This document shows, piece after piece, positions 16,724-45,010 of a stretch of DNA of 64,000 bases. A model generated the notes under the pieces. It was not told the origin of the DNA, did no database searches, and saw only the letters and a program-made list of their open reading frames with translations. The translations under genes and the position numbers were made by a program. Position 1 is the stretch's first letter. The number at the start of each line of letters is the position of its first letter. This stretch comes from Deltaproteobacteria bacterium (lineage in GTDB: Bacteria > Myxococcota_A > UBA9160 > PR03): NCBI GenBank assembly GCA_031396445.1, contig JANNKU010000028.1, positions 20,651-84,650 on the forward strand, read 5' to 3'.

Positions 16724-16783
16724 GGGCTGCGCTTCGAGAGTTCCACCTGGCAGAGCGAAGACATCCACACCGTCACGTTTCAG

Positions 16784-26222: not shown

Positions 26223-26223
26223 G

Positions 26224-27072
26224 ATGCGGCTAACGGCGGTCGCGATCCTGTTCTCGATGGCCGCGCTGGCTTCGGTCGGATGCACGCAACAACAAGATCG
26301 CGCGCCGAAGCCTGCGACGTCCATCGCACCCCGCGGCATCGCGAGCGTCGACGGATCCACCATCGACGCATCCGAGTTGGCGTCCGGCAAGGACGAGCCG
26401 CGCCGTGATCCGAAGCGTCAACTCGACGTCGCGATCGCGCGCAAGCTCGCGACCGCCGAAGCTCGGTTTCGGAATCTCACCGAGCGTTCCGACGTCGCGG
26501 CGAAACTCGACGCGATCCGCCGCAACGCCGTGCGAGCCGAAGAAGAAGCGCTGCGCGACGCGCTCTTCGCATCCGTCCGCGACGCGGTCGCGCTCACCGA
26601 CGAAGATCTGCGCGCGCACTACGAGAAGACGAAGCTCCGCTTTGCCGAACGCCAGTGGCGTTTCCTGCGCCAACGCTTCGCATCCGAAGCGGAAGCGCGT
26701 GCAGCGGATGCGAAGCTCGGCGCAGACGGGCGACTCGATGCCGCGCACGCCGAGGCGATCGGCCCCGCTGCCGCAGCGGAGGTCGCAACGGCGACGAGCC
26801 CCGAAGTGCTGCGGCTCCAGCAACCCGGCGAGCGCGCCACCGTCGCGCACGACGGCGGCTACCAACTCGTCGAGCTGGTCGAGATCCTGCCCGCGGAATC
26901 AAAGCCGTTCGAAGCCGTGCGCCCGCAGGTCGAAGCGAGTCTTCGCACGCTGCGCGCGCAGGCGGCGTTCCGAGCGGAGATCGAGCGGCTGCGTGCGAGT
27001 GCGAAGATCGAGGTCGACGGGGACGCGCTCGAAGCGTTGGAGGCGGCCCCGCAGGCGAGCGCCTCGGAGTGA
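26224..27072 (+). CDS. Lipoprotein, SurA/PpiD-like chaperone with a degenerate parvulin-type PPIase domain
   Basis: MRLTAVAILFSMAALASVGC (lipobox-like). EDLRAHYEKTKLRFAE... and a C-terminal ...FRAEIERLRASAKIEVD pattern, as in SurA/PrsA-type proteins. It starts 1 nt after the stop of the upstream gene. Confidence 0.55.
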   Translation: MRLTAVAILFSMAALASVGCTQQQDRAPKPATSIAPRGIASVDGSTIDASELASGKDEPRRDPKRQLDVAIARKLATAEARFRNLTERSDVAAKLDAIRRNAVRAEEEALRDALFASVRDAVALTDEDLRAHYEKTKLRFAERQWRFLRQRFASEAEARAADAKLGADGRLDAAHAEAIGPAAAAEVATATSPEVLRLQQPGERATVAHDGGYQLVELVEILPAESKPFEAVRPQVEASLRTLRAQAAFRAEIERLRASAKIEVDGDALEALEAAPQASASE

Positions 27073-28038: not shown

Positions 28039-29820
28039 ATGTATACCGCGTTCTTCGGGCTCCGCGAAAAGCCCTTTGCACTGAGCCCCGACCCGCGCTT
28101 CCTCTATTTGTCGGAGGCGCATCGCGAAGCGCTTGCCCATCTGTTGTACGGCATCGAGCAGGGCGAGGGCTTCATCGCCGTCACCGGCGAAGTCGGTACC
28201 GGCAAGACGACGCTCTGCCGCACGCTGCTGCGACGACTCGGCGGTGAAGTCGAAGTCGCGTTCCTCTTCAACCCGAAATTGTCCGCGCGCGAGTTGCTCG
28301 AGTCGATCCTGGTCGAGCTCGGCGCGGAGAAGTCGCGCACTCCGGGCCAGCAGAGCGCTCGCGAGTTGGTCGATGCGCTGAACCACTTCCTGCTCGAGAA
28401 GCACGCGGCCGGCAAGCGCGTGTTGCTGATCGTCGATGAAGCGCAGGGTCTGTTGCCCGAGACGCTCGAGCAGATCCGCTTGCTCTCCAATCTCGAGACC
28501 GAGAGCTCCAAGCTGATCCAGATCCTGCTGCTCGGGCAGCCGGAACTCGACGTGATGCTCGAGTCGCCCGAGTTGCGCCAACTGCGCCAACGCATCGGCG
28601 TGCGCTGGCGACTCGCGCCGCTCTCGCGCGACGAGACGTCCAACTACGTTCGCCATCGGCTGCGCGTTTCCGCCGACGCGGAACGCGATCATGTGTTCAG
28701 CGATGGCGCGCTCGGCGAAGTCTTCCGCTTCTCGGGCGGCATCCCGCGGCTGGTGAATCTCGTCTGCGATCGCGCGCTGTTGGCGGCCTATGGCGATGGC
28801 GCACCGCAGATCGGCGCCGACGTCGTGAAACATGCTGCCGTCGAGTTGCGCGGCGACAACGGCGCGGCGCAGCAGCGCTCCACGTCTGCGTGGCCGGCGC
28901 TCGCCGCGATGACGCTCGCCGCCGCGGTGGCCTTGCTCTTCGCGTTCGGCGGCCCGCGCGAGGTTGGCGAGCGACTCGGCATCATCCCGCGCGCGCCGGC
29001 GCCGATCGCAGCAGCGGTCGAGCTCGCGACTACACCGGAGGCGGTCGCCGACGCGACCCCCGATGTCGCGACGGCGCCACCCGCGAGCGCGTTGATCGCG
29101 GATTCCGCCACCACGCCCGCAGCACCTCCTGTCGAGGTGCCAGCCGTGCCGCGCGTCGACGACCTCGCTCACGCGCTCGCGCTGCGCTCGCCGGGCGCGA
29201 CGGTCGCGTCGTCGTATGCGGCGATTCTGCGCGCATGGTCAGAGCCGGCCACTGATCCAGCGCCGGATCTGCTCTCGTTCCCGGAACTCATCGGTGAACT
29301 CGATGTCCGTGGCCTCGCGGTGTTCACGTTCTCCGCGCCCGATCTCGAGGTGCTGCGCGTGCTCGATCATCCGGTGCTGCTCGGCATCGATGCGTCCGAC
29401 GGCGTGCGCCGCGTCGTTGCGCTGCGTCACTTGAGCGACGGCGAAGCCGAACTCGACGGCGTCATCGCGTCGGGTCCGGTGCGCGTGTCGATCGACGAAT
29501 TGATGAACGCGTGGCTCGGCGACGCCCATCTGGTGTGGCGCGACTTCGAGCCGCTGCCCGAGTTGATGCGCGCCGGTGACGCGGGCGATGACGTGGCGTG
29601 GTTGCAACAAGCACTGACCGATGCGGGCTTCTCGCCTGGCTCCGCGTCGGGACACTTCGATGCGGCAACCGAAGAGGCCGTGCGCGCATTCCAGGAAGAT
29701 CGCCGTCTCGACGTCGATGGCGCCGTCGGGCCGCTCACCAAGATGGCGCTCTATCGCGCGTCGGGTCGCTACGCGGTGCCGCACGTCGCGCTCGCCGCGC
29801 GCGTCGGAGACGCCGGATGA
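28039..29820 (+). CDS. ExeA/GspA-like AAA ATPase with C-terminal peptidoglycan-binding domain
   Basis: Started at ATG 28039. N-terminus: MYTAFFGLREKPFALSPDPRFLYLSEAHREALAHLLYGI. Walker A GEVGTGKTT, Walker B LLIVDEAQ, LLGQPEL. PG_binding_1-like tail: VAWLQQALTDAGFSPGSASGHFDAATEEAVRAFQEDRRLDVDGAVGPLT. Confidence 0.9.
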   Translation: MYTAFFGLREKPFALSPDPRFLYLSEAHREALAHLLYGIEQGEGFIAVTGEVGTGKTTLCRTLLRRLGGEVEVAFLFNPKLSARELLESILVELGAEKSRTPGQQSARELVDALNHFLLEKHAAGKRVLLIVDEAQGLLPETLEQIRLLSNLETESSKLIQILLLGQPELDVMLESPELRQLRQRIGVRWRLAPLSRDETSNYVRHRLRVSADAERDHVFSDGALGEVFRFSGGIPRLVNLVCDRALLAAYGDGAPQIGADVVKHAAVELRGDNGAAQQRSTSAWPALAAMTLAAAVALLFAFGGPREVGERLGIIPRAPAPIAAAVELATTPEAVADATPDVATAPPASALIADSATTPAAPPVEVPAVPRVDDLAHALALRSPGATVASSYAAILRAWSEPATDPAPDLLSFPELIGELDVRGLAVFTFSAPDLEVLRVLDHPVLLGIDASDGVRRVVALRHLSDGEAELDGVIASGPVRVSIDELMNAWLGDAHLVWRDFEPLPELMRAGDAGDDVAWLQQALTDAGFSPGSASGHFDAATEEAVRAFQEDRRLDVDGAVGPLTKMALYRASGRYAVPHVALAARVGDAG

Positions 29821-30578
29821 GCACGATCCTAAAAGCACTTCGACGGCTCGAAGAGCAGAAGTCCAGCGCAACGCCGCGCCCGCTGCGCGACGAAGTGGTG
29901 CTGGTGCCCGCGCGACGGCGTTCCCGCAACGGTGTCGTCGTCGCATTGGTCGCAGCGTTCGCGTTTGCGGTGTTGGGCGGTGCGCTGGTGTGGCTGCTCG
30001 ATCGCGCGCCCGGCACGACCGAGGCGCCCATCGCAGCGATCGCGCCCGCGATCGATGTCGCGGCGCCGCCCGCGAGCGCGCCGATCGCTGCCGAGCAGCA
30101 CGAGCGCACGAGCGAGGTGACGGTTGCAGCGCCCGATCCGATCGCGACGGCCACGCAGGCGCCCACCGTGCCGATTCCGACCGCGCCACCGGACTTCGCG
30201 ATCGTGCGTCCGCGCACGGAAACACGCATTGCGCCGGCCGCGTCTGCCGCTGAACCCGAAGTCGAGGAGTACGACGAGGTCGCCGTCGCTCGCCCGAGCG
30301 CCGCGCCGCGCTTGCCCGATACCGAGCGCGGATTCGTGGACGAGTCGATTCCAGCGGCGCGCGTCACGCGCCCGCGATCCCCCGTTCGTGTCGAGCGCAC
30401 GCAGTGGCACCCGAGCCCCGAGCGCCGCATCGCGTGGGTCGAAGTCGAAGGCGTGACGGCGCTGCGCGAAGTGCGCGAAGGCGAGCGCATCGGCTCGTAC
30501 ACCGTGCGCGAGATCGAACCCGCCGCCGTGTTGTTCGCCGACGGCAGCGTGGAGCTCCGGACCGAAGTCGGCCGATAG
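29817..30578 (+). CDS. GspB/ExeB-like bitopic membrane protein
   Basis: ATGA overlap with the exeA-like stop. N-terminus MSTILKALRRLEEQK resembles the GspB hallmark MSYILDALRK.E. One TM (VVVALVAAFAFAVLGGALVWLL). C-terminus: RIAWVEVEGVTALREVREGERIGSYTVREIEPAAVLF. Confidence 0.8.
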   Translation: MSTILKALRRLEEQKSSATPRPLRDEVVLVPARRRSRNGVVVALVAAFAFAVLGGALVWLLDRAPGTTEAPIAAIAPAIDVAAPPASAPIAAEQHERTSEVTVAAPDPIATATQAPTVPIPTAPPDFAIVRPRTETRIAPAASAAEPEVEEYDEVAVARPSAAPRLPDTERGFVDESIPAARVTRPRSPVRVERTQWHPSPERRIAWVEVEGVTALREVREGERIGSYTVREIEPAAVLFADGSVELRTEVGR

Positions 30579-30640
30579 GCTGCGCGCCCGTTCGATCGGC
30601 GCGCCGAACGCGAACTCTGAAGCCAAGCGGGAGAGCTCTC

Positions 30641-31993
30641 ATGCATCGAGCGGTCGCTGTCGCTGCGTTTGCCTTCGGATTGTTGCTCGCGGGATCGGCT
30701 TCGGCGCAGGGCGTGTGGAGTGATGGATCGCCGTCGCGACTCGAACACCGTTGTGTGCTCGGCATCGATCTCGTGGACACGATCGAAGATCTGGCGTGGA
30801 CGTGGGTCGGCTTCTTTGGATTGCCGCAGGTAGGGCAGGTCTACTACGCGCGCATCGCCGTCGGCGGTGTCGGCTGCAGCGGCGCCTGGGGAATCCCCGA
30901 GGTGAAGCTGCCGCGCGGAACCAGCTTCGCGATCACGCAGCAGAATCCCGTGCGTTGTTATCTGCGGGGCGCGAATCAGTCGGCGCCGGTTCAATTGACG
31001 GATGGTTCGTGTCCGCCCGCGCCGTTCTTCGGGCTCTATCCCGACTCGAACTCTTCGTTTCCCAACCCCGGTGGCAGCCCCTACTCCAATCAATTCTTTT
31101 CGTTCCCGCCGGTGACGCAGCCCTACTGGCCGCTGCCCCCCGGCGCGATCTTGACGATCGAGTTCCCGCTCGTGTCGAGTCAATCGCTCTCCGGTTTCGC
31201 GAGCAACGACTATCTGCTCGGCGCGGCAAACGTGCTCGACAACAATCCCGGCGGGCCGACTCTGCAATGGGACGGACACCCATCCTTCTACGCGGGCTCG
31301 GGAATTCCGTCGAGCGGCGCGTGGCAGGGTGTCTTCGTCACGCAGGGTCCGTACTCCGGGCCGCGCATCGTCTACCCGGAGCCGTCCACGCAGAACGTCA
31401 CGCAGACGACGGGGAACACGCTCGTTCATGTCTACAACACATCGTGTCTGAGCCAGAACAGCGTCGGCTTCGAGATCTTTCCGGCAGACAACGGAGTGCC
31501 GGACAACACTGTGTTCGTGGGCGGCTCTTGCACGACGCTCGGTGATGGCGGCTCCAGTTGCTACGCGAGTTGGAGCGGCTTCGACGCCGACACGCTCTAC
31601 AAGTGGCGCGCGTACTTCCTGCCCGGAACGCTGAACGCCTGCACCAACGTCGTCGAGGACGCCAACTTCAAGTTCTTCCAGACGCCGCCGCTGCCGGGCG
31701 CGCTTCGCTACACGCTGCTCGCGACGGCGGACGGCGACGGCTCCATCTCGCTGCAGCCCGCGGGCGGATCGTATGCGGCGAACACGGCGGTCACGGCGAC
31801 AGCGGTGCCCGCGCAAGGCGCGTCGTTCGTGCGCTGGCGCTTCAACGGCGGGAGCACCGCCACCACGAACCCGGTCGGTGTCACGATGAATCAGTCGCGC
31901 ACGCTCGTCGCGGAGTTCGCGCCCGAGGCGGGTGCGATGCTGCAATTCGTCGCGGCGATTGCGACGCTCGCTGCGGTCGCGCGGCGGCGCTGA
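30641..31993 (+). CDS. Secreted protein with InlB-B-repeat-like domain and PEP-CTERM-like C-terminal anchor (EFAPEA-TM-RRR)
   Basis: ATG 30641. Signal peptide MHRAVAVAAFAFGLLLAGSASA. The protein ends ...LVAEFAPEAGAMLQFVAAIATLAAVARRR*. Confidence 0.75.
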   Translation: MHRAVAVAAFAFGLLLAGSASAQGVWSDGSPSRLEHRCVLGIDLVDTIEDLAWTWVGFFGLPQVGQVYYARIAVGGVGCSGAWGIPEVKLPRGTSFAITQQNPVRCYLRGANQSAPVQLTDGSCPPAPFFGLYPDSNSSFPNPGGSPYSNQFFSFPPVTQPYWPLPPGAILTIEFPLVSSQSLSGFASNDYLLGAANVLDNNPGGPTLQWDGHPSFYAGSGIPSSGAWQGVFVTQGPYSGPRIVYPEPSTQNVTQTTGNTLVHVYNTSCLSQNSVGFEIFPADNGVPDNTVFVGGSCTTLGDGGSSCYASWSGFDADTLYKWRAYFLPGTLNACTNVVEDANFKFFQTPPLPGALRYTLLATADGDGSISLQPAGGSYAANTAVTATAVPAQGASFVRWRFNGGSTATTNPVGVTMNQSRTLVAEFAPEAGAMLQFVAAIATLAAVARRR

Positions 31994-32006
31994 CGCGTGA
32001 GCCGTT

Positions 32007-33461
32007 CTACGCCTCGACGTCGCGGTGCAGGCGGCGCAATGCCCACAGCGACAGCGGCGCCACCATCACGACTGCGACGCCAGCGGACCAGGCCGCCAGC
32101 GCGGGGCCCATCGACACGCCCGAGAGCAGCCGCGGCAAACCCGCCGCAAGCAGGCCGAGCACGAGGCCGAACGCGCTGAAGGCGAGATCGCTGCGCAGGA
32201 TGTGCACGCCGTGGCCGGCGAGCTGCCAGACGGCGAGCAAGTAGGTGGCGATCGCCGAAGCTGCGGCGCCGAGAATCAAGCCCGGCAGACCGCCGAGCCA
32301 GAACCCCGCCAGACAGCCGAGCGTCGTTGAGACGGCCTTGAATGCGGTGGTGACCGCCCAGCTTCGGGAATCGCCGACCGCGAGCAGGGCGCTGCCACTC
32401 ATGTCGCACAAATACGAGAACCAGACGCCGAGCATCGAGAGCTGGGCGATCCAACCGGCGTCGTGATAACGCGCGTCGTAGAGACCATCGAAGAGCACCG
32501 GGGCGAGTGCCACGGCGGCGACGGTGCCGGCGAGTGCGGCGGGCAGGATGTTGTTCCGCACGCGACCGATCACGCGCGGCAGCGCCTCCGGGCCGGAGCG
32601 CAGTGCAGTCGAGAAGGTCGGCAGCACGATCAGCCGGTTTACCTGCGCCAAGACTTCGCGCACGACGTTCGAGAGCATCACGGCAATGCTGTACACGCCG
32701 ACGACGTCTACCGGAACCAGCAACGCGACCAGCGCCAGATCGATGCGGAACGCGATGAAGTTGAAGGTCGTGCTGAGCGAGACCCAGCGCCCGAACTCGA
32801 ACATCTCGCGCACCGCAGCGCGATCCCAGCCGAAGCGATCGCGACGGCCGGGGATCGCCACGTGACTCGCGATCGCGCGCAACAGCGATGCGAAGAGTCC
32901 GCCGACTACCAGAGCCCATACGCTCCGCTTCCAATACGCGATCGCGACGATCGCGACGACCGACGCCACTTGCGTGCCGATCTCGATCATGACGATGCGG
33001 CCCGGAAGAATCTTGCGAGCGAGCGTGATCAGCTTCGTCGAGGAGACGCCGAACAACACCGCGCTGAAGCTCGCGACCGGAACCAGCTTGATGAGTTCGG
33101 GCTCTCCGTAGAGATGCGCCATCGGCACGGCCAGCGCGGTCCCGATGATCCAGAGCGCGAAGCCGCGCAGCACCTGCACGGTGAAGGCGGTGTCGAGGAA
33201 GCGGGGTTCGTCGCCGCGCTCGTGGCGGATGATCGCCGCCGCGAGGCCGACGTCCGAAACCGACTGCAGCGTCCACATCAGCAGGTTCACCAGCGCCATC
33301 AGACCGAAGGCTTCCGGGAAGAGCAGACGGGCGAGCACCAGGTTCGAGCCGAGGCGCAGGACCTGCGAGACAACCTGGCCGGCGATGCTGGTGATCGTGC
33401 CGCTCGCCATGCGGCTACTGAGCGCTTTGCGCTCGGTAGCGGCGTCGGCGTGTTCACTCAT
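32007..33461 (-). CDS. Wzx-type oligosaccharide flippase (MOP superfamily polysaccharide biosynthesis protein)
   Basis: 484-aa ORF, polytopic with about 12-14 TM helices. The N-terminus SGTITSIAGQVVSQVLRLGSNLVLARLL is typical of Wzx/RfbX proteins. Confidence 0.8.
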   Translation of the reverse strand: MSEHADAATERKALSSRMASGTITSIAGQVVSQVLRLGSNLVLARLLFPEAFGLMALVNLLMWTLQSVSDVGLAAAIIRHERGDEPRFLDTAFTVQVLRGFALWIIGTALAVPMAHLYGEPELIKLVPVASFSAVLFGVSSTKLITLARKILPGRIVMIEIGTQVASVVAIVAIAYWKRSVWALVVGGLFASLLRAIASHVAIPGRRDRFGWDRAAVREMFEFGRWVSLSTTFNFIAFRIDLALVALLVPVDVVGVYSIAVMLSNVVREVLAQVNRLIVLPTFSTALRSGPEALPRVIGRVRNNILPAALAGTVAAVALAPVLFDGLYDARYHDAGWIAQLSMLGVWFSYLCDMSGSALLAVGDSRSWAVTTAFKAVSTTLGCLAGFWLGGLPGLILGAAASAIATYLLAVWQLAGHGVHILRSDLAFSAFGLVLGLLAAGLPRLLSGVSMGPALAAWSAGVAVVMVAPLSLWALRRLHRDVEA

Positions 33462-33739
33462 GCGGGAGGCAACCTAGTAGTGGCGCGAGATCGCTGCCAT
33501 TTCGCGTCGCTGCGAGCGGCGCGGCGGGGACCCGTTGCCTACCGTGCCGCCGATTTCGAGCCGACCCGCTCAAGCCCCCCAGGAGGAGCCTCCGAAGGGT
33601 TCTCGTGGGCACCCCCAACCTCTCCTCATTTTTCGCAATGTCTCTGCTCGCGCCGTCGGCGCTGGCTGGCTCCCGGATTCTTGGCGCGCCGATGCTGGCC
33701 TCTGCGCGCTCGGTGCTCGGTCACCCGAGGTAAGCGGTA

Positions 33740-34639
33740 GTGAAGCAGCGCTACGTGGTCGTGACGCCCGCTCGCGACGAGGAGCGAACCATCGAGCTGA
33801 CCATGCGCTCGATGCTGGCGCAGACGATCCCGCCGCTGCGCTGGGTGATCGTCGATGACGGCTCCACCGACGGGACGCGCGAGCTCCTCGCGCGCCACAG
33901 CGCGAGCGCGCCGTGGATCGAAGTCGCCCAGCGCGGCGATCGCGGCTTTCGTGCTCTCGGTGGCGGCGTGATCGACGCGTTCAACGAGGGATTCGCGCGG
34001 GTTCGCGAGCTGCCCTTCGACTTCGTCGTGAAGCTCGACGCGGATCTGTCGTTCGAGCCGACGTACTTCGAGAATCTTCTGCGGCGCTTCGACGCGGATC
34101 CGAAGCTGGGCATGGCGAGCGGCAAGACCTTCCTCGTCGAGGATGGCGTGCGGAAGATCGAGTGGTGTCCGGACGAGCACGTGCGCGGCCCGGCGAAGAT
34201 GTATCGCCGCGAATGCTTCGAAGCGATCGGCGGTCTCGAAGCGCGGCGCGGCTGGGACATGATCGACGAGACACGCGCCCAGATGCTCGGCTGGACCACG
34301 CGCTCCTTCCTCTCAGAGCCACTGATCCATCACCGCCCGATCGACGGTAGACAAGCCAACGCATTGCGGAGTCGCTTCGAGATGGGCGCGCTCTACCACT
34401 TCCTTGGCTACCACTGGCTCTACCTGTTGGTGCGGAGCATGCGCAGCGCGGTGCAGGATTTTCCGCGCGGGACCGGCGGCGTTGCGCTGCTGCTCGGTTA
34501 CCTGCGCGCCGCGCTGCGCCGCACGCCGCGCTTCGACGCCGACTACGTCGCGTGGGTGCGCAAGCAGCAGCTCGCGCGCTTCAACCTGAGCCACTTGCGC
34601 GGCTATTTGAGCGCCACGCGAGATCGTCGCGATGCCTGA
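33740..34639 (+). CDS. Family 2 glycosyltransferase
   Basis: GTG start. VVVTPARDEERTI...VIVDDGSTDGT...VKLDADL (DxD-type) and a C-terminal membrane-associated segment. First gene of a translationally coupled five-gene operon. Confidence 0.85.
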   Translation: MKQRYVVVTPARDEERTIELTMRSMLAQTIPPLRWVIVDDGSTDGTRELLARHSASAPWIEVAQRGDRGFRALGGGVIDAFNEGFARVRELPFDFVVKLDADLSFEPTYFENLLRRFDADPKLGMASGKTFLVEDGVRKIEWCPDEHVRGPAKMYRRECFEAIGGLEARRGWDMIDETRAQMLGWTTRSFLSEPLIHHRPIDGRQANALRSRFEMGALYHFLGYHWLYLLVRSMRSAVQDFPRGTGGVALLLGYLRAALRRTPRFDADYVAWVRKQQLARFNLSHLRGYLSATRDRRDA

Positions 34640-36041
34640 GCGCGAGCGCAGCCACGGCGGCATCGCGCTGCGTGTGATCTCGCTCGTGATCGCGGCACTG
34701 CTCGGCTACGCGGCGCTGACCGATCGCGCGTGGCTCGGCGGGGATCCGGGAATCGGCGGTGTCGAAGCGGTGGCGCTCGGTGTCGCGGTGCTGCTCGCAG
34801 CGAGTGCGTTGCTGCGCCAGAGCTGGAACGGCGCGGTGCTGGCGATCGTGATTTCGACCGGCGCGACGCTGCTGCTGGCCGAAGTGGTGGCGCGCCCGCT
34901 GCTCGGTGCGCGCTACATGACACCGTTTCGGCTCGATGAACGCCGGCTCTACACACCCGTGCCGGGTGCGCGTCGCGAGTATCATCGGCCGGCCGCCAAC
35001 GGTGGCGACCGGATCGATTACGCGTTCAACGGGGACGCGTTTCGCGGCGCGCCGCTCGCGCGTCCCAAGTCCTCGCTGCGCGTCGTCGTCTATGGCGATT
35101 CGTTCATCCAGGCCGAGTACTCGAGCCTCGAGAACACCTTCACGGAGCAACTCGGCCGCGCTCTCGCCGCGAAGCTCGGGGTTGCGGTCGAAGCGGTGAA
35201 TGCCGGCGTCGCTGGCTACGGGCCCGATCAGAGTCTGCGCCGCATGCAGGACGAGCTCGGCTGGCTCGAGCCCGATCTGGTCGTCGTGTCGATCTACGGC
35301 GGCAACGACTTCGGCGATCTGGCGCGGAACAAGCTCTATCGGCTCGGGCCGGACGACGCGTTGGTCGAGAATGCCTTCACGCTCGACGACGATTTGCGGC
35401 TGCGCATGGAACTCGCGCGCCAGGAACCGGTGCTGCGCCGCGCGCTGCGCGAAGGCGTTCGCACCTTCCGCGCGATGCGCGCGCCTGCTCCCGTGGCGGA
35501 CGCGAAAGCGCGCGAGCAAAAAATCGATCGCTATCTGCGCCAGTCCGTCGCAGAGTACCAGGAGTTCGCCGAGCAGAACAACGACGTCGTTCATGAGCTG
35601 CTGTCGGATCCGTACAACGCGGATGTCACGCTGCTGCCCGAGAGCGACTCGGCGCGCTACAAGGTGCGGATGATGGCTGCGGTGATGAAAGAGATGGCGG
35701 CGCTCGCCGACGCGCACCACCTGCCGTTGCTCTTCGTCTTCATCCCGCATGCGATCGACGCGACGGGGCAGCACGCGAGCGGCGTCGTCGACGTCGCACG
35801 CTACCCGGAATACCACCCGAGTCGCGCGACCGACACGCTGGTCTCGATCGCGCAAAAACTCGGGCGCGCGCACGTCGATCTCTTTGCGCCGTTCCGCGCG
35901 CGCGGCGCCGATGCGCTCTATTTCCAGGATGTGGACGATCACTGGAACGACGCCGGCCAGGCCTACGCTGCGCACCTCGCTGCGGATGCGATCGTCGCCG
36001 GCGCGCTGCTGCCGCCCGCTGCTGCCGGGACGAGTCGATGA
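34632..36041 (+). CDS. Membrane-anchored SGNH/GDSL-fold hydrolase or O-acyltransferase (AlgX/AlgJ-like motifs)
   Basis: N-terminal TM helices. Block I VVVYGDSF. Catalytic DxxH block FQDVDDHWNDAG (the DxHW motif seen in polysaccharide O-acetyl-transfer proteins). 8-nt overlap with the GT2 gene. Confidence 0.7.
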   Translation: MPERERSHGGIALRVISLVIAALLGYAALTDRAWLGGDPGIGGVEAVALGVAVLLAASALLRQSWNGAVLAIVISTGATLLLAEVVARPLLGARYMTPFRLDERRLYTPVPGARREYHRPAANGGDRIDYAFNGDAFRGAPLARPKSSLRVVVYGDSFIQAEYSSLENTFTEQLGRALAAKLGVAVEAVNAGVAGYGPDQSLRRMQDELGWLEPDLVVVSIYGGNDFGDLARNKLYRLGPDDALVENAFTLDDDLRLRMELARQEPVLRRALREGVRTFRAMRAPAPVADAKAREQKIDRYLRQSVAEYQEFAEQNNDVVHELLSDPYNADVTLLPESDSARYKVRMMAAVMKEMAALADAHHLPLLFVFIPHAIDATGQHASGVVDVARYPEYHPSRATDTLVSIAQKLGRAHVDLFAPFRARGADALYFQDVDDHWNDAGQAYAAHLAADAIVAGALLPPAAAGTSR

Positions 36042-37654
36042 GCGCGACCGACTCGATTCCCGCGCAGCCCGACGCCGAAATGTGGGACGTCGTGGTCGTC
36101 GGCGCGGGCATGGGTGGCGCCACGCTCGGCTATGAACTCGCCCGGCGCGGTCGCCGCGTGCTCTTCCTCGAGAAGGGCAAGCTGCTGCACCGCGACCCGA
36201 GCACCGACTACTCACCGATTGGAGTCGGCCCGCAGCGCAGCGTGCCGGAAGAGCGCCTGCGCCGCGGCTGGTGGCCAACGCCGCTCTCGGGCGACACGAA
36301 TTTCGGTTCACTCGAGTTCTACGCGCCGCTCGGTTGTGGAACCGGCGGCTCGACGGCGATCTACGCCGCCGCGCTCGAGCGCTTTCACCCGATCGATTTC
36401 CGCCCGCGCGCGAATTTTCCGGGCGTCGCCGACACGACGCTGCCCGAGGCGTGGCCGATCTCGTACGAGGAACTCGCACCGTTCTATCAGCAGGCCGAAG
36501 AATTGTTTCATGTTCGCGGTACGCGCGATCCGCTGCACCCGGCGGGTGACACCGGATTGGCAGCACCGCCGCCGGCGAGCCCGCGCGACGAAGCGCTGCT
36601 CGAATCCTTCGAGTCGGCGGGGCTGCATCCGTATCGACTGCATTCCGGTCGGCGCTACGTACCCGGTTGCGACGAGTGCCCGGCCGGCGCGTGCGCGCGC
36701 GATTGCAAAGCCGATGCGGGCTGGGTCTGCGTGCTGCCGGCGCTCGAGCGCTTCGGCGCCGCGGTGTTGCCCGAGTGCGAAGTGGTGGCGCTCGAATCCG
36801 AGGGTGCGTCGGTAAACGCTGTCCAGTGTCGTTGGCAGGGCCGCGAGCTGCGCATCCGCGCGAAGATCGTGGTGCTCGCGGCAGGCGCTTTCATGACGCC
36901 GGTGTTGCTGCAGAACTCGCGCTCGTCCGCTGCGCCAAACGGGATCGCGAACGGCTCCGGGCTGGTCGGTCGCAACTTGATGCTGCACGCGAGTGACTTC
37001 ATCGCGGTGCGGCCGCCGCTGCGGCGCGCAACGACTGGTGCGAGCAAGTCGATCGCGCTGAACGACTTCTACGTCGCCGAAGGGCGCAAGCTCGGCACCT
37101 TCCAATCGGTGGGTGTGGATCTCACTCCGTGGCGGATCCGGTCTTTTCTGGGCGATCAGTGGGAGCGCGCGCCGGAGGCGTGGCACCGCTTCGTGCGGCC
37201 GCTGCTGAAGCCGGTGTCGCACGCGTCGATGCTCTATTTCAACAACGCGGCGATCTTCGCGTCGATCGTCGAAGATCTGCCGTATCTCGACAATCGAGTG
37301 GTTCCGGATGCGAGCACGCCGAGCGGGATGCGCTTCACCTATCGCTACACCGGCGAGTTGCGCGAGCGCGTGCGCTGGTTCCGGCGCCATCTCGAAGCAT
37401 CACTTGGACCGATCCAGACTTTCGTGCTGTCGAGCGACAACAACATCAACTATGGACACGTGTGCGGGACTTGCCGTTTCGGCGACGACCCGGCCACCAG
37501 CGTGCTCGATCGGAACAATCGCGCCCACGAGGTGGACAACCTCTACGTCGTGGACGCATCGTTCTTCCCGTCGAGCAGCGGCACGAACCCGAGCCTCACG
37601 ATCAGCGCCAATGCGCTGCGCGTGGCCGGCGAGATCGATCGGCGCTTCGCGTAG
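36038..37654 (+). CDS. GMC-family FAD-dependent oxidoreductase
   Basis: ATGA overlap with the upstream gene. FAD fingerprint DVVVVGAGMGGATLGYELARRGRRVLFLEKG. C-terminal GMC motifs GTCRFGDDP...NLYVVDASFFPSS. Confidence 0.85.
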   Translation: MSATDSIPAQPDAEMWDVVVVGAGMGGATLGYELARRGRRVLFLEKGKLLHRDPSTDYSPIGVGPQRSVPEERLRRGWWPTPLSGDTNFGSLEFYAPLGCGTGGSTAIYAAALERFHPIDFRPRANFPGVADTTLPEAWPISYEELAPFYQQAEELFHVRGTRDPLHPAGDTGLAAPPPASPRDEALLESFESAGLHPYRLHSGRRYVPGCDECPAGACARDCKADAGWVCVLPALERFGAAVLPECEVVALESEGASVNAVQCRWQGRELRIRAKIVVLAAGAFMTPVLLQNSRSSAAPNGIANGSGLVGRNLMLHASDFIAVRPPLRRATTGASKSIALNDFYVAEGRKLGTFQSVGVDLTPWRIRSFLGDQWERAPEAWHRFVRPLLKPVSHASMLYFNNAAIFASIVEDLPYLDNRVVPDASTPSGMRFTYRYTGELRERVRWFRRHLEASLGPIQTFVLSSDNNINYGHVCGTCRFGDDPATSVLDRNNRAHEVDNLYVVDASFFPSSSGTNPSLTISANALRVAGEIDRRFA

Positions 37655-37675
37655 CGAGCGCGAGAAGGAGCAGCG

Positions 37676-38428
37676 GTGAGCGGCATCTTCGAGGGCAAGA
37701 CGGTGGTGGTGACGGGCGCGGGTTCCGGCGTGGGACGCGGACTCGCGATCGGCTTCGCGCGCGATGGCGCCAATGTGGTCGGAATCGGGCGCACCGAGCG
37801 CGATCTCGCGGAGACCGCCGCGCAATGCGGCGGTGCAATGGCGTTCGTGGTCGGCGACGTGCGGCTCGAAGCCGATGTCGAGCGCCTCTTCGCGGAGGCG
37901 GAGCGGCTCCACGGTCGCGTGGACATCCTGGTGAACAACGCGGCCGTGTATCCGAAGCGCAGTGTTCTCGAGTGCCCGGTCGAAGAGTGGTCGCGCACCC
38001 TCGAGATCAACGTGGTCGGCATGTATCTGTGCTGCCGGCGCGCGCTGCCCGGCATGCTCGAGCGCGGCTACGGGCGGATCCTGAATCTCGGTTCGTTCGC
38101 GTGGCGCCAACCGATTCCGCACAGCTCGGCGTATGCGGCGTCGAAGGGCGCCGTGCGCGCGCTCAGCCGCGCGATCGCCTCCGAGGTCGATCGCTCTCGC
38201 TACCCCGATGTGCTGGTGAACGAGCTGATCGCGGGCGTCTTTCGTACACGCATGAGCGACACCGGCGCCGATCCGATGGAGGGATACCAGCACGCGCGCA
38301 CCGTGGCGTCGCTGCCGGCCGGCGGTCCGCACGGCGAAACCTTCGCGCGTTCCGAGGTCTTCGTGGAGGATCCGCCGGGGCTGCGCGAGCGGCTTCGCAA
38401 TCTTGTGACGGGTCGCAAGCGCTCGTGA
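37676..38428 (+). CDS. Short-chain dehydrogenase/reductase (SDR)
   Basis: AAGGAG RBS + GTG. TGAGSGVGRG cofactor motif, NNAA, catalytic YAASKGAV. Confidence 0.85.
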   Translation: MSGIFEGKTVVVTGAGSGVGRGLAIGFARDGANVVGIGRTERDLAETAAQCGGAMAFVVGDVRLEADVERLFAEAERLHGRVDILVNNAAVYPKRSVLECPVEEWSRTLEINVVGMYLCCRRALPGMLERGYGRILNLGSFAWRQPIPHSSAYAASKGAVRALSRAIASEVDRSRYPDVLVNELIAGVFRTRMSDTGADPMEGYQHARTVASLPAGGPHGETFARSEVFVEDPPGLRERLRNLVTGRKRS

Positions 38429-39396
38429 GCGATGCCGCGTCGATGCTGATCCACGTCGGTTACCCGAAGACGGGATCGACGTGGCTTCAGGAAGACCTCT
38501 TCGCCAACGCGAGCTCAGGCTTCTGGTCGCCGTGGACGCTCGATGTGAAAGAGCAGTACCTGCTAGCGAATCCGTATCGCTTCTCGGCCGAGCGCGTGCG
38601 CCAGGTGTTCCGGACGGGCTGCGATCACGCCGCAGCGCGCGGTCTCGTGCCGGTGATCACAGACGAGTGGTTGATCGGCAACCAGGTGTCGGGCGACTAC
38701 CGCGGCAAGCAGATCGCGGAGCAATTGCACGCGACGTTTCCGACGGCCGTCGTGTTGATCGTGATTCGCGAACAGCAATCGATGCTGCTGTCGTCCTACC
38801 GCGAATACGTGCAGGCGGGCGGCGGCGAGACGCTCGAGGAATTCATCGGCGCCGAGTCCGCGCTGCCCGGTTTCGTGCCGCAGTGTCGACTCGATCACCT
38901 CGAGTACGACTTGTCGATCGCGCACTACCACGCGCTCTTCGGCGCGGCGCATGTGTTGGTCGAGCCATTCGAGCGGATGGTGGCCGATCCGATTGCGTTT
39001 CACGCGCGGCTCGTCGCGTTCACCGGTGCGCGCGGGAGCTACCAGCATCCGCAGCAAGCGCGCAATGTCGGTCTGCGCGGCGCGACGCTGACGATGCGTC
39101 GCGCGCTCAACAACCTGGTGCATCCGTTCGGCCTGAACTTCAGGCGCGGCGCCCGGCGGCGGCGCTGGATCGCGCGCTCTGCGGAACGCATTGGCCGCGT
39201 GCTCTGCGGAACGCATTGGCCGCGTGCTGCCGGCGGGTCTGCACGCGCGCTGCGAAGCCGATTTGCGAGTGCGGCTGCAGCGGCAAACCGACGGCTACTA
39301 CGCGGCCAGCAACCAGCGGACCAGCAAGTCGATCGACATCGATCTCGCCGCGCTCGGCTATCCGTGTTGAGTGCGGAGCGTGCTCCTTGCTCCTGA
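38425..39396 (+). CDS. Sulfotransferase-family protein; C-terminus frameshifted by a 25-bp tandem duplication (the restored reading ends at 39369)
   Basis: GTGA overlap with the SDR stop (alternative ATG at 38443). PAPS 5'-phosphosulfate-binding-type motif HVGYPKTGSTWLQ. After 39200 the current frame gives LCGTHWPRAAGGSARAL.... Deleting one repeat unit gives ...RIGRVLPAGLHARCEADLRVRLQRQTDGYYAASNQRTSKSIDIDLAALGYPC*. Confidence 0.7.
   Translation: MSDAASMLIHVGYPKTGSTWLQEDLFANASSGFWSPWTLDVKEQYLLANPYRFSAERVRQVFRTGCDHAAARGLVPVITDEWLIGNQVSGDYRGKQIAEQLHATFPTAVVLIVIREQQSMLLSSYREYVQAGGGETLEEFIGAESALPGFVPQCRLDHLEYDLSIAHYHALFGAAHVLVEPFERMVADPIAFHARLVAFTGARGSYQHPQQARNVGLRGATLTMRRALNNLVHPFGLNFRRGARRRRWIARSAERIGRVLCGTHWPRAAGGSARALRSRFASAAAAANRRLLRGQQPADQQVDRHRSRRARLSVLSAERAPCS
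39176..39225 (+). repeat. Exact tandem duplication, period 25 bp (gctctgcggaacgcattggccgcgt x2)
   Basis: 39176-39200 and 39201-39225 are identical, and the next 3 nt (gct) also match the unit start. Confidence 0.95.
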
Positions 39397-39485
39397 GCCC
39401 GCGAATCAGCTCGCCCTGTCACCTGTACCGCCGCCAGAGGCACTCACCTGGGAGCGTCCCCATTGCGTCGCTGGAGTCGGCACCG

Positions 39486-40796
39486 ATGAGCCCCCACAAC
39501 CATCTGATTGGGCGGCTCGGCGTGCGCTTGGCGCTACTCGCGTTCGTGTCAGTGCTGGCGGGAGCCGCGTCGGCCGCGACGTCCTACGCGGTCGCCGCAG
39601 AGGATGATCCCGGATCCTCCACCGGCGCCGACACGGTGGCGATCGGCGTACCCGACTACCAATTCGTGAATGACATCGGCTTCGGCGGCGCCAACGCCGA
39701 CATCTTCGGTCCCGGCGAATCGACGGTGCTGAGCTTTCCGGTTGCGATCCGCAACATCGCGGACCAGCCAGATCTCTTGATCTCCGCGTTCGTCGGCGGC
39801 GCGGGTGCAACCGACGGCGCCGAAGTGCAGGTCGATGTGTCGAGCGACGGCATCGACTTCACGGAAGTTGCGACCTTCGACACCACAGACGGTCGCAACG
39901 TCGCGCTCTATCCATTCCCCGAAGTCGCGTTCGAGTCGGTCAAGCACTTCGCGATCGAGCTCGGCAGCGCAAGCGCTGCGACCCACGTGCGGCTCACCAA
40001 TCTCGCGAGTACCGCGGAGGGTCTGCGCCTCGACGCCGTCGAAGGCTTGCAGCCGGCGACCGCGTCGTCGCACGCGTTCGAGATCCGCTTCGAGAAGTAT
40101 CGCGGCGACGAGGTCGGGCGCTTTCTCGTGCGCATCAAGAACACCGCGCGTCCGAATGGTGTCGCGATCCGCGAGCTGCGGATCGACAAATCCACGACGC
40201 CCGGCGTGACGCTCGAGGACACCGTGACCTCCTTGTGCGAGCAACGGGAGCAGGTATTCACACCGCTCACCACTTGCCCAGAGCCCGGGAGCTTCGTGTG
40301 TGTCGAGAATTGCATCCTCGACAATGGGCCGAGCATTCCGTTCAGCCGTCACGTCTGGTCGATCGATGGCGAGAACGAGGCGCCCGCTGGAACAGGCCTC
40401 GAACCAGGCCGCCAGGCGATGCACCTGCGCAACGAGAACTTCGACACCGATGGAACGCTGCTGACGTTCCTCGGCGGTTTCGCGTTCACCGTCACCTTCG
40501 CGGACGGCTTCGAACACTCCTTTACGTTCAGTGACGACGTCCTCGATCAAGCGACGACAGGCTCCCTGTTCCAGAAGTATCTCTACTTCTCGAACACACC
40601 CACCGTGTTCGGACCGCGGCCGGTCTACTACTACGAGTTCGTGCCGGAGCCCGAAGGCGCGGGCGCTGCGATCGCAGCGGTTGCCGCTCTGCTGGCGTTG
40701 ACGCGCCGGCGCGCATCGATGCTCCACCGCGAAGCCAGAAGCACCCCCGAAACCACGACGCAGCTCCACGCGAACCAATTGCCCCACACGACGTAA
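39486..40796 (+). CDS. Secreted protein with PEP-CTERM-like anchor (EFVPEPE-TM-RRR) followed by an atypical 27-aa tail
   Basis: ATG 39486. Signal peptide MSPHNHLIGRLGVRLALLAFVSVLAGAASA. C-terminal YYYEFVPEPEGAGAAIAAVAALLALTRRRA. The body has no motif I recognise. Confidence 0.7.
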   Translation: MSPHNHLIGRLGVRLALLAFVSVLAGAASAATSYAVAAEDDPGSSTGADTVAIGVPDYQFVNDIGFGGANADIFGPGESTVLSFPVAIRNIADQPDLLISAFVGGAGATDGAEVQVDVSSDGIDFTEVATFDTTDGRNVALYPFPEVAFESVKHFAIELGSASAATHVRLTNLASTAEGLRLDAVEGLQPATASSHAFEIRFEKYRGDEVGRFLVRIKNTARPNGVAIRELRIDKSTTPGVTLEDTVTSLCEQREQVFTPLTTCPEPGSFVCVENCILDNGPSIPFSRHVWSIDGENEAPAGTGLEPGRQAMHLRNENFDTDGTLLTFLGGFAFTVTFADGFEHSFTFSDDVLDQATTGSLFQKYLYFSNTPTVFGPRPVYYYEFVPEPEGAGAAIAAVAALLALTRRRASMLHREARSTPETTTQLHANQLPHTT

Positions 40797-42232
40797 AGCC
40801 CCGGCACAAGCAGCGGCGTGACGTCGCCCACCAGCGCGACGCGTTCGAAGAGCTGCGTGTGCGCGACGATCTGGCCGCGCGCGTCGATCAGCGCGCTGAT
40901 GCCGGTGGTGGTCGAGCGGATCACCGGGACACCGAGTTGTGCCGCTTGCGTCGCGACGAGCATCAGATGTTGCGCGGGCTCCGCGGTGTCGCCGAACCAG
41001 CCGTCGTAGGTGAGGTTCACGAGCAGGTTTGCGCCGCGTTGCACGGGCTCGCGCACGTAGCGCGGCAGGATCGCCTCGTAGCAGATCAGGAATGCGAAGC
41101 GCGCGCCGTCTGCTTCGTAGAGCGGCATTTCGCTGCCGGCGAGGAACGGTGAGCGACCGATCCATTTCGTGAGCCACGGGAGTCGTTCGCCGAACGGCAC
41201 GTACTCGCCGAACGGAACCAGCACGTTCTTGTCGTAGCGCGGGTCGATCGCGCCGTCGGCGCGCAATCGATACGCGGAGTTGAAGTGGCGTGGATGCTCG
41301 CGATCCGTGGTGTCCGAGGAACTCGCGCCGGTCCAGATCTCGACGCGGCGATTCGTCGCGAGTTCGCGCACCGCGCGATTCCAGCGCTTCGTCGGTCCCC
41401 ACTCGAGCGACTTCTCCGGCAGCACGAGTACGGCGATCGAGGGATCCGCATCGAGGGTCTCGCTCGCGAGTGCGGCGAGTTTCTCGACGACGCGCTCGGC
41501 CTCCTCGGTGCTCTTCGCGCGCGGCGCGGTGGGATCGCCGCCCGGTTGGATCAGCGCGACGCGTAGCGAACGCGCATCTCGTGCGGCGGCGGCGATGCGA
41601 GCATCTTGTCGATGCGCGGCGAGGAGCGCCGCTGCGACGAGCAGCGCCAACACGAACGCGTTTAGCGCGAGTGCGCGCACACCGCGCCGCGCGCGCAATG
41701 TCTCGATCGCTTGCAGCGCCACCGCGTTCGCGAGCAGCACCAGGAACGTGATTCCCGCGACGCCGGTCGTCGCGCTCGCGAGGAACACGTTCGGCGTCTG
41801 GTACCACGCGACGCCCTGGAAGTAGGGGAAGAATTGCGGGCTCGCGAACTCGCAAGCGGTGAACCACGCGGCGATCGCGAGCGGCCACGCGGAACCCGCA
41901 GCGCTGCGGATCGCCGCAAAGCCCCACGCGAAGACGCCCGCGTAGAGGCCGAACGTTGCCGCGAACAACGCGAGTGCGAGCACGCCGACGGCGGGACCGA
42001 GCGCGGTGAAGACGTCGATCGTCGGGACGAGCCACGCGAAGATCGCCGCGTTCGCAGACGAGCCCACGAGCCAACCTGCGAAGAAGGCGCGTCGCCCACG
42101 CAATCTCGAAATCACGAAGCACGCGGGAACCCAGGCGAGGGGATGCAGCGCGATCCATGAGAACGGCGGCGCAATCGCGGCTTGGATCGCGCCAGAAAAT
42201 AAAAGAGCGAGAACAGGGAAGGCGCGAGGCAT
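40631..42232 (-). CDS. lnt: Apolipoprotein N-acyltransferase
   Basis: 533-aa ORF. N-terminal polytopic domain (PPFSWIALHPLAWV). CN-hydrolase domain (RVALIQPG..., FLICYEAILP, NLTYDGWFG). Terminal TM helix. Confidence 0.9.
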   Translation of the reverse strand: MPRAFPVLALLFSGAIQAAIAPPFSWIALHPLAWVPACFVISRLRGRRAFFAGWLVGSSANAAIFAWLVPTIDVFTALGPAVGVLALALFAATFGLYAGVFAWGFAAIRSAAGSAWPLAIAAWFTACEFASPQFFPYFQGVAWYQTPNVFLASATTGVAGITFLVLLANAVALQAIETLRARRGVRALALNAFVLALLVAAALLAAHRQDARIAAAARDARSLRVALIQPGGDPTAPRAKSTEEAERVVEKLAALASETLDADPSIAVLVLPEKSLEWGPTKRWNRAVRELATNRRVEIWTGASSSDTTDREHPRHFNSAYRLRADGAIDPRYDKNVLVPFGEYVPFGERLPWLTKWIGRSPFLAGSEMPLYEADGARFAFLICYEAILPRYVREPVQRGANLLVNLTYDGWFGDTAEPAQHLMLVATQAAQLGVPVIRSTTTGISALIDARGQIVAHTQLFERVALVGDVTPLLVPGLYVVWGNWFAWSCVVVSGVLLASRWSIDARRRVNASRAATAAIAAPAPSGSGTNS

Positions 42233-44020: not shown

Positions 44021-44034
44021 AGAGGACTCTCCGG

Positions 44035-44760: not shown

Positions 44761-44963
44761 GCCGCCACCCGAGTACCCGCGTCCGTACAAATCGTCTCCT
44801 CGCAAACCCCCAAAGCGCGCGTTGGACGGGGGGGCGTCTCGCTTCTCTTCGGCCGACTCACCGTTCGGAGAGTCGAGCAGCGTGCGTGAGTGGCACGCAG
44901 AGCTTCGTTCTTGAATCAGGAAGGCGGCCGCGAGTCGGGCGCGAGACCCCGCAGCGGGAGCGA

Positions 44964-44992
44964 GCGTAAGCGCGTCAACCCTGCCGGTCAAC
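44964..44992 (-). promoter_or_regulatory. Candidate sigma-70-type promoter (TTGACC-17 nt-TACGCT) for the rhomboid operon
   Basis: The reverse complement of 44964-44992 reads ttgaccggcagggttgacgcgcttacgct, in the only sizeable gap upstream of the operon. Pattern match only. Confidence 0.25.
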
Positions 44993-45010
44993 AAGGCTTT
45001 CAGGTGGCTT

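Follow-up and report, generated by a model that had tools for sequence, protein, structure and literature searches.

A 64-kb stretch of contig JANNKU010000028.1 (assembly GCA_031396445.1), hereafter the window, comes from a Myxococcota host and carries between positions 28039 and 40796 a GspA/GspB-like gene pair, a divergent Wzx-type flippase, an operon of five enzymes and two secreted proteins, sec1 and sec2, that share a C-terminal anchor. A sequence-only reading had described this region as a compact, GspA/GspB-led surface-glycan or glycoprotein module whose substrates are the two anchored proteins. Comparison with related loci shows that the region is probably composed of three parts of separate origin: a GspA/GspB backbone, an insert with a tailoring cassette, and two flanking PEP-CTERM adhesin-like proteins. 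The components are ordinary, namely divergent PEP-CTERM proteins, a recurrent uncharacterized cassette in an insert and an unrelated GspA/GspB pair next door, and the locus is not a new kind of system. Genes were called by third-position GC bias (GC3; the window is 63–73% G+C) and cross-checked against a mechanical list of open reading frames (ORFs). Pfam/NCBIfam scans covered most GC3-supported ORFs of the 64 kb, and unannotated ORFs were given a hydropathy check. The ORF list and the family assignments bear out the genes described earlier and their positions.

Eighty metagenome loci around relatives of the window GspA were fetched, and a junction running from GspA(-GspB) into DUF4097, rhomboid and NUDIX is found in 19 of the 80, counted among those with enough downstream DNA. 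The same backbone is seen on a 1.59-Mb contig of a related organism (L032), where GspA is 55% identical. The order there is MMPL, a sigma-54 activator, two ArsA genes, a periplasmic binding protein (PeriBP), an AMIN-domain protein, PanK (minus strand), GspA and GspB, followed directly by DUF4097 (minus strand), SIR2, rhomboid, luciferase-like, NUDIX and abhydrolase genes. All genes of the L032 neighborhood have window counterparts that flank 30.6–42.3 kb. The conserved neighbors of GspA are PanK, AMIN and ArsA on one side and DUF4097 and rhomboid on the other, and a GspB-like gene is kept directly 3′ of GspA in L031, L032, L033–L041, L050, L062 and L065. Sec1, sec2, Wzx, the family 2 glycosyltransferase (GT2), GMC, the sulfotransferase and the apolipoprotein N-acyltransferase Lnt are found near GspA in 0 of the 80 metagenome loci. 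These data identify GspA and its GspB-like partner as conserved housekeeping genes of an uncultured Myxococcota clade, within the conserved order ArsA-PeriBP-AMIN-PanK-GspA-GspB/DUF4097-SIR2-rhomboid-luciferase-like-NUDIX. Because the GspA/GspB pair sits in the backbone of 20 loci (L032 and the 19) without glycan genes, the pair does not lead a glycan locus, contrary to the earlier description.

The stretch from sec1 to lnt, 30.6–42.3 kb, is lacking at this junction in the backbone loci and is therefore read from the gene-order comparison as an 11.7-kb lineage-specific insert between GspB and DUF4097, at a variable spot of the conserved backbone. In L006, Lnt separates sec2 from DUF4097, whereas L032 and the remaining backbone loci have no Lnt there. 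The region after GspB varies in relatives and holds nothing, an SGNH-like gene with a 385-aa PEP-tailed protein, or the insert of the window. In the closest clade (L031, L035–L041; GspA 80–84% identity) the next genes after GspB encode a different SGNH/AlgX-like protein and the 385-aa protein, which in L031 ends in CTTVPEPASAASAAVALAALCAWRAARRSVSR. Variability at this site is what would be expected if the tailed genes, the cassette and Lnt were unrelated, functionally unlinked cargo that had accumulated in a variable region. Beyond PanK, another insert of about 11 kb also encodes surface proteins, and the co-conservation of sec1 and sec2 with the cassette core ends at the nearest relative. PEP-CTERM proteins are however known to associate with exopolysaccharide (EPS) loci (PMC1569441), the modeled sec2 fold is of a carbohydrate-binding type, and the order sulfotransferase, sec2, Lnt is kept in the closest relative, so that a purely accidental co-location is unlikely.

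The tailoring cassette has a distribution of its own. The closest available relative, JANLTC010000224.1 (GCA_031362725.1), has the order Wzx-GT2-SGNH-GMC-SDR-sulfotransferase-sec2-Lnt-DUF4097-SIR2-rhomboid at 70–90% amino acid identity. The whole cassette with sec2 and Lnt is conserved only in this relative, and the gene upstream of Wzx there is not sec1. QEVM01000022.1 (63–85% identity) encodes Wzx-GT2-SGNH and then a single 818-aa GMC::SDR fusion (L011 11413–13869), and the surrounding 10 kb lack a sulfotransferase, sec1, sec2 and GspA/B. CAVPHD010000010.1 carries GT2-Wzx, with SDR-GMC-SGNH on the opposite strand, and a gammaproteobacterial metagenome-assembled genome (MAG) carries SDR-GMC-Wzx-SGNH within a large polysaccharide cluster of glycosyltransferase (GT), aminotransferase and polyketide synthase genes. 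An SGNH homolog in the complete genome CP121329.1 is near a sulfotransferase, an SDR, a carbamoyltransferase, GTs and a chain-length determinant. Wzx is found with the cassette core in L013, L014, L018 and L012; the neighbors of SGNH homologs are SDR, GMC and Wzx in L011 and L012 and SDR in L010. The SGNH family has more than 300 homologs; those listed are near full length and mostly annotated ALGX+GDSL_2. GT2 orthologs with 62–90% identity occur in 10 Myxococcota-type MAG loci, and some GT2 orthologs (62–73% identity) are found without the SGNH/GMC/SDR trio. A GT2 ortholog is near an ArnT-like GT-C (PMT_2) and an MBOAT protein in L019 and near a DPPRS-like UbiA enzyme in L022. Because the core recurs without the anchored proteins, and without the sulfotransferase save in the closest relative, gene order identifies Wzx, GT2, SGNH, GMC and SDR as the evolutionary unit and the sulfotransferase, sec1, sec2 and Lnt as accessory neighbors.

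This distribution bears directly on the model of the sequence-only reading, a self-contained glycoprotein module with GspA/GspB-assisted export and an operon that acts specifically on the two anchored proteins. The synteny comparison that it had proposed shows that GspA/GspB, the cassette and sec1 are not co-conserved. The core occurs without sec1 or sec2 in L011/L014, L018 and L012, sec1 is missing from its syntenic position in L006, and GspA/GspB are backbone genes in 20 loci without the cassette. The sec2 homologs P0027 and P0028 (~55% identity) lie in unrelated neighborhoods. A Wzx flippase also implies a lipid-linked intermediate and not direct protein modification, and no oligosaccharyltransferase is present. 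The model draws on the facts that the sole two tailed proteins of the 64 kb both lie in the insert and flank the operon, that the closest relative shares both sec2 and the entire operon, that L015 has a PEP-CTERM gene adjoining a GT2 ortholog, and that GspA-type ATPases recurrently adjoin PEP-CTERM genes; many PEP-CTERM proteins have been suggested to be glycosylated (10.1101/2023.06.07.544157). Taken with the absences listed above, these points leave a dedicated two-substrate module quite improbable, and the three-part origin is retained.

The window ATPase resembles the ExeA/ExeB (GspA/GspB) and TIGR03015 proteins in combining AAA_22 with a C-terminal PG_binding_1 domain and in its coupling to a small bitopic partner with a GspB-resembling N-terminus. 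The GspA stop overlaps the partner start codon (ATGA), and the label 'GspB-like' is based on an N-terminal MSTILKALRRLEEQK motif, a single transmembrane (TM) helix and the conserved pairing with GspA. More than 7,600 homologs have the GspA architecture, and many are annotated by JGI as general secretion pathway protein A. The kinship with the ATPase subfamily of PEP-CTERM loci that had been proposed is borne out in part: the protein is related to TIGR03015 (293.8 bits) but falls under the cutoff of 324.5 and is not a member of the curated family. The partner matches no Pfam/NCBIfam family and no T2SSB/GspB model even at E ≤ 10. Unlike the ExeA/ExeB and TIGR03015 systems, the window pair has no adjacent secretin, type II secretion system (T2SS) or exosortase genes, and the conserved neighbors of the ATPase are PanK, the AMIN-domain protein and ArsA-like ATPases. 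No secretin or gsp gene was found in the window scans, and there is no exosortase among the annotated genes of the GspA loci.

Both sec1 and sec2 have signal-peptide-like N-termini and a tripartite C-terminal tail. Sec1 ends in AEFAPEAGAMLQFVAAIATLAAVARRR (in a longer view, EFAPEAGAMLQFVAAIATLAAVARRR), which consists of APEA, GAMLQFVAAIATLAAVA and RRR with the stop codon directly after RRR. Sec2 carries YEFVPEPEGAGAAIAAVAALLALTRRR, which consists of VPEP, EGAGAAIAAVAALLALT and RRR. An ungapped alignment of the two tails spans 27 residues with 12 identities, in agreement with the residue-for-residue alignment reported earlier. A PEP motif, TM helix and basic cluster are thus recognized in sec2, and in sec1 with A for P at the third motif residue. 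C-terminal extensions of variable length occur across the sec2 family. A six-frame regex scan of the 64 kb found PEx-TM-RRR tails on sec1 and sec2 only; no such tail is present on the remaining large secreted proteins of the window. The earlier motif 'EFxPEx' is too long, as EF is the last strand of the passenger domains. EF was considered as part of the signal and rejected: YYEF is kept in sec2 homologs whatever tail follows, and xF ends the B-repeat in sec1 homologs.

The tails of homologs establish the signal class. Using the TIGR02595 cutoff of 16 bits, the VPEP tails of four sec2 homologs score 24.0 (P0065), 21.2 (P0027), 18.9 (P0052) and 16.2 bits (P0016), and the VPEPG-TM-RR tail of the sec1 homolog P0200 scores 15.3 bits. 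Locus L007 has three PEP-type tails counting P0027, and its two DUF4215 proteins reach 21.8 and 19.8 bits with TIGR02595. The related loci L015, L031, L060, L067, L074, L075 and L080 also have PEP-type tails. Because homolog tails at the same alignment position pass TIGR02595, the window tails are assigned by sequence to the PEP-CTERM class as divergent, Ala-rich, sub-threshold sorting signals. The class proposed in the sequence-only reading is therefore supported through the homologs, while the window tails themselves stay below the curated models. The tails share with the PEP-CTERM/exosortase system (Haft et al. 2006; TIGR02595, PF07589) the signal peptide, the PEP-type motif abutting the TM helix and the Arg cluster, as well as passengers with little known homology, polysaccharide genes beside them and homologous tails that pass the model. 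They differ in being Ala-rich and below thresholds, in that one reads PEA and one has a 27-residue extension, in the lack of a nearby exosortase, PrsK/R/T system or sigma-54 box, and in a Myxococcota host, where the described signal is MYXO-CTERM. A search for the sigma-54 'PEP-CTERM box' upstream of sec1 and sec2 gave 22 matches versus 18.8 expected, none of them rightly placed. The sigma-54 response regulator at 53025–54494 was considered as PrsR and rejected at 376 bits versus a cutoff of 503.

The same passenger domains carry other tails elsewhere. The sec2 family comprises 70 metagenomic proteins (P0001–P0070), several labeled Myxococcota, that share a domain of ~370 aa ending in YQKYLYFxxTPxxSGPRPVDYYEF. 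Beyond this point the proteins end in VPEP-TM-RRR, in CNDGxDNDGDG repeats with CGLG-TM-RRRR (MYXO-like), in xVPxLS-TM-RxR (IPTL-like) or in no tail. Pfam/NCBIfam recognizes no known domain in sec2, a Pfam annotation is found in 1 of the 70 homologs (PKD domains, outside the shared region), and the sec2 family is undescribed. In the sec1 family (alignment A3), 11 full-length homologs end in a Gly/Ser linker and a MYXO-CTERM-like tail (Cys, TM helix, RRR), and PEP-type tails are confined to sec1 (APEAG) and P0200 (VPEPG). Sec1 also has a Flg_new_2 B-repeat at residues 357–428. The NCBIfam name 'choice-of-anchor' denotes one passenger domain with alternative C-terminal sorting tails in different genomes. 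The sec1 and sec2 domains resemble these families in their alternative tails and differ in that no existing choice-of-anchor NCBIfam model matches either passenger domain. By sequence comparison both are classed as undescribed 'choice-of-anchor' passenger domains, which exchange anchors from lineage to lineage. The AlphaFold2 model of sec1 (pLDDT 77) has Ig-like/pilin-like folds that resemble pilins and adhesins. In the model of sec2 (pLDDT 85, pTM 0.81), one of the beta-sandwich domains matches carbohydrate-binding modules of the CBM32/discoidin type. Judged by these models, neither protein looks like an enzyme.

Pfam/NCBIfam scans of most GC3-supported ORFs of the 64 kb and the hydropathy check of unannotated ORFs found no exosortase, Wzy, Wza/Wzc or priming transferase, which confirms and extends to Wzy the absences first reported. 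An exosortase was also not found among the polytopic membrane ORFs near GT2 orthologs or near GspA in the PEP-CTERM subclade described below. PEP-CTERM proteins have a signal peptide, PEP motif, TM helix and basic cluster and are served by a single exosortase, often encoded in an EPS locus; their genes are mostly single-gene units scattered over the genome, the median number per genome is eight, and 20 or more are often present (PMC1569441; 10.1101/2023.06.07.544157). Because the genes are scattered and the exosortase is single, an exosortase outside the 64 kb is expected and is not the oddity it had been taken for.

The lack of an exosortase in the fetched DNA could also mean that the tails are a distinct, exosortase-independent signal, cut by another intramembrane protease, for example the rhomboid close by or a CPBP enzyme of myxosortase type, in an otherwise MYXO-CTERM clade. 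Curated PEP-CTERM models miss both tails, the best match of sec2 is MYXO-CTERM, and most sec1 homologs have MYXO-CTERM-like tails. The sec2 match covers the TM+RRR part alone and, at 16.8 bits, falls short of the cutoff of 20. The window tails resemble the MYXO-CTERM/myxosortase system (TIGR03901; PMC11980579) in tripartite architecture, and many sec1/sec2 homologs have Cys tails at the equivalent position. The window tails contain no Cys and thus lack the invariant residue that defines MYXO-CTERM, so Cys lipidation followed by CPBP cleavage cannot apply to them. A rhomboid gene lies 3 kb downstream. It was considered as a rhombosortase and rejected, as it scores 20.7 bits versus a cutoff of 84, and is a backbone gene present without a tailed neighbor; a GlyGly motif is also absent from the tails. 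Tails of homologs that occupy the same position do pass TIGR02595 or PF07589, which makes a separate signal very improbable, and assignment to PEP-CTERM is retained.

The GT2-SGNH-GMC-SDR-sulfotransferase operon is recognized from its enzyme families as a glycan-tailoring set. Compared with a Wzx/Wzy-dependent locus, the flippase (Polysacc_synt_3) is present, whereas the priming phosphoglycosyltransferase, Wzy, the polysaccharide copolymerase (Wzc) and the outer membrane exporter (Wza) were not found in any scanned ORF of the window. A single GT2, a Wzx-type flippase and the lack of a polymerase make an accessory cassette the simplest reading. GT2 would transfer a sugar onto a lipid-linked carrier or glycan at the cytoplasmic face. 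The closest solved relatives of GMC are the catalytic (large) subunits of FAD glucose dehydrogenase and fructose dehydrogenase; when solved structures were searched by sequence, the sulfotransferase had no match, and GT2 and SGNH had weak ones only. This kinship and the GMC::SDR fusion in one relative suggest sequential sugar oxidation and reduction, in which GMC would convert a sugar hydroxyl to a keto group and SDR would reduce it, for a net epimerization or other redox tailoring by the logic of DprE1/DprE2. The sulfotransferase would O-sulfate the sugar unit in the cytoplasm with 3′-phosphoadenosine 5′-phosphosulfate (PAPS) before it is flipped by Wzx, and the periplasmic SGNH/AlgX-like domain may O-acetylate (acylate) or de-esterify the flipped unit. 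Priming, polymerization, ligation and export would be supplied elsewhere in the genome, so that the cassette would be an accessory modification and not a full EPS pathway. Sec1 and sec2 would be exported by Sec, held in the inner membrane by the C-terminal helix, processed by an exosortase whose gene lies elsewhere, and exposed on the cell surface, where the CBM32-like module of sec2 might bind glycan.

DprE1 and DprE2 oxidize and then reduce decaprenyl-phospho-ribose (PMC11127046). The cassette resembles this pair and three-component side-chain glycosylation, a periplasmic glycan modification by a polyprenyl-P-sugar synthase, a flippase and a GT-C (PMC11127046), in having one GT2, a flippase, an FAD enzyme/SDR pair (fused once) and no polymerase, and GT2 orthologs elsewhere are near a GT-C and a DPPRS-like enzyme (L019, L022). 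It differs in that the window oxidase is of the GMC family and not a VAO-type DprE1, the flippase is MOP/Wzx and not GtrA, SMR or MATE, the window has no GT-C, and an SGNH/AlgX-like protein and a sulfotransferase are added. A bolder proposal makes the cassette an uncharacterized pathway in which GMC and SDR redox-tailor a lipid-linked sugar with unrelated enzymes. The product, sulfated in this lineage, would decorate a surface glycan or the glycan moiety onto which PEP-CTERM proteins are joined by exosortase, and the tailed proteins would be displayed on it or bound to it. We give this proposal a small chance.

Several observations weigh against the three-part account and its component assignments. 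Neither this insert nor the second one described below has a tRNA, flanking repeats or a shift in composition at its junctions, and the ends of the 11.7-kb insert also show no direct repeats, GC shift or mobility genes; whether DNA was inserted here or deleted elsewhere is therefore inferred from the majority pattern. The window tails do not match TIGR02595 or PF07589 even at E ≤ 10, sec1 reads PEA and not PEP as first noted, and 27 residues follow the basic cluster of sec2. No exosortase was seen in the window or in ~110 fetched loci (Pfam lists and scans of selected ORFs), and the window contains no acceptor, GT-C, MBOAT or AT3 partner. The biochemical roles of GT2, GMC, SDR and SGNH are inferred only from family membership and gene fusion. 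PEP-CTERM genes adjoin GspA in three configurations: in the window, in the L031 clade and in a GspA subclade (45–47% identical; L060, L067, L074, L075 and L080) in which a PEP-tailed gene is upstream of GspA. This gene directly abuts GspA in L060 (353–1225) and L067 (8401–9945), and both proteins pass PF07589 at 22–24 bits. MYXO-CTERM and GlyGly-CTERM proteins depend on the T2SS, which in Myxococcus is needed for surface display of the MYXO-CTERM proteins (PMC11980579). The three arrangements, with an ATPase close to TIGR03015, make plausible a loose functional tie between the GspA-type ATPase family and the export of C-terminally tagged proteins, one that is not specific to the glycan cassette.

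Features of the insert and its borders in the 64-kb window (coordinates in window positions)
Feature	Coordinates	Strand	Evidence and remarks
GspA-like ATPase, 593 aa	28039-29820	+	AAA_22 98.5 bits, AAA_16, C-terminal PG_binding_1 64.2 bits
GspB-like partner, 253 aa	29817-30578	+	Single TM helix, Pro/Ala-rich linker, small C-terminal beta domain
sec1, 450 aa, adhesin-like	30641-31993	+	Signal peptide, Cys-rich N-domain, InlB-type B-repeat, APEA-TM-RRR-stop tail
Wzx-type MOP flippase	32007-33461	-	Polysacc_synt_3 152 bits; NF007773 92 bits
GT2 glycosyltransferase, 299 aa	33740-34639	+	Glycos_transf_2 62 bits
SGNH/AlgX-like, membrane-anchored, 469 aa	34632-36041	+	Lipase_GDSL_2 44 bits, weak ALGX match, 3 N-terminal TM helices
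GMC-family FAD oxidoreductase (sugar dehydrogenase type)	36038-37654	+	GMC_oxred_N, GMC_oxred_C
Classical SDR	37676-38428	+	adh_short 162.6 bits
PAPS-type sulfotransferase	38443-39396	+	Sulfotransfer_3 28.6 bits; 3′ end frameshifted in this assembly
Tandem duplication, 25 bp x2, GCTCTGCGGAACGCATTGGCCGCGT	39176-39200 / 39201-39225	+	Alignment versus L001; repeat family D6
sec2, 436 aa	39486-40796	+	Signal peptide, CBM32/discoidin-like domain, VPEP-TM-RRR tail + 27 residues
Lnt (apolipoprotein N-acyltransferase)	40631-42232	-	TIGR00546 219 bits versus cutoff 132.9
DUF4097, SIR2 (about 43223-43936), rhomboid protease	42324-45234	-	Pfam scan; tblastn matches to L032, L006

Wzx is transcribed divergently from the GT2-to-sulfotransferase operon, whose genes are spaced by overlaps of 8 and 4 bp and then by gaps of 21 and 14 bp. 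The N-terminal GYPKTGSTW of the sulfotransferase, read from the sequence, matches the 5′-phosphosulfate-binding loop (5′-PSB) motif. Logan contig L001 (run SRR20217202) differs from window 29362–42018 by 3 mismatches and one 25-bp indel over 12.6 kb. The indel is the perfect tandem duplication listed in the table, which is absent from L001 and shifts the frame of the last ~55 sulfotransferase codons. The intact enzyme on L001 has 300 aa and ends in LAALGYPC. The duplication is either a population variant or an assembly artifact. Sec2 and lnt overlap convergently by 166 bp in the window and by 91 bp in the relative L006, and the C-terminal tail of Lnt, which ends in RRRVNASRAATAAIAAPAPSGSGTNS, is encoded antisense to the sec2 PEP-CTERM tail (window 40631–40796). 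The rhomboid ORF (44035–45234) has 399 aa in the window versus 245–251 aa in L006 and L032, and its long N-terminal extension is probably an over-called start. Downstream of the GMC::SDR fusion, QEVM01000022.1 encodes a protein of 652 aa that faintly matches choice-of-anchor Q and a DUF4215/malectin protein of 1052 aa.

AMIN and PanK, which abut in at least eight related loci (L031, L032, L036, L037, L039, L041, L046 and L047), are split in the window by a second lineage-specific insert of ~11 kb (window 16364–27072). It encodes a 119-aa signal-peptide protein, a 1916-aa protein with six Glucodextran_B repeats and NHL, a 1047-aa PD40 protein and a peptidyl-prolyl isomerase. The 119-aa and 1916-aa ORFs may be one split gene, since the former has the signal peptide that is absent from the latter. 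The backbone itself forms a broadly conserved, uncharacterized neighborhood in this clade (window 3093–30578; L031, L032, L036, L039, L041, L048, L052, L082 and L104) of an MMPL/SSD transporter, a sigma-54 activator, ArsA-like ATPases (tandem or fused, with an HSP20-like domain), a periplasmic binding protein, an AMIN coiled-coil protein and PanK, then GspA-GspB. This neighborhood may encode an envelope machine associated with peptidoglycan. A 302-aa ORF of the upstream backbone region (window 6780–7688) has a HicB-like antitoxin domain (104 bits). In the GspA subclade with upstream PEP-tailed genes, PilW/PilY1-type minor pilin genes lie upstream in L067, and a protein with 6–7 TM helices that is LPG_synthase_TM-like follows GspA in L060, L075 and L080.

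The sec1 and sec2 families provide a clean natural example of sorting-signal swapping, in which an uncultured Myxococcota clade has PEP-CTERM-type tails on families whose members elsewhere end in MYXO-CTERM or IPTL-like tails. The curated models miss Ala-rich PEP-CTERM variants, a point of importance for the annotation of high-GC genomes. The recurrent, uncharacterized five-gene cassette of Wzx, GT2, SGNH/AlgX-like protein, GMC and SDR merits biochemical study.

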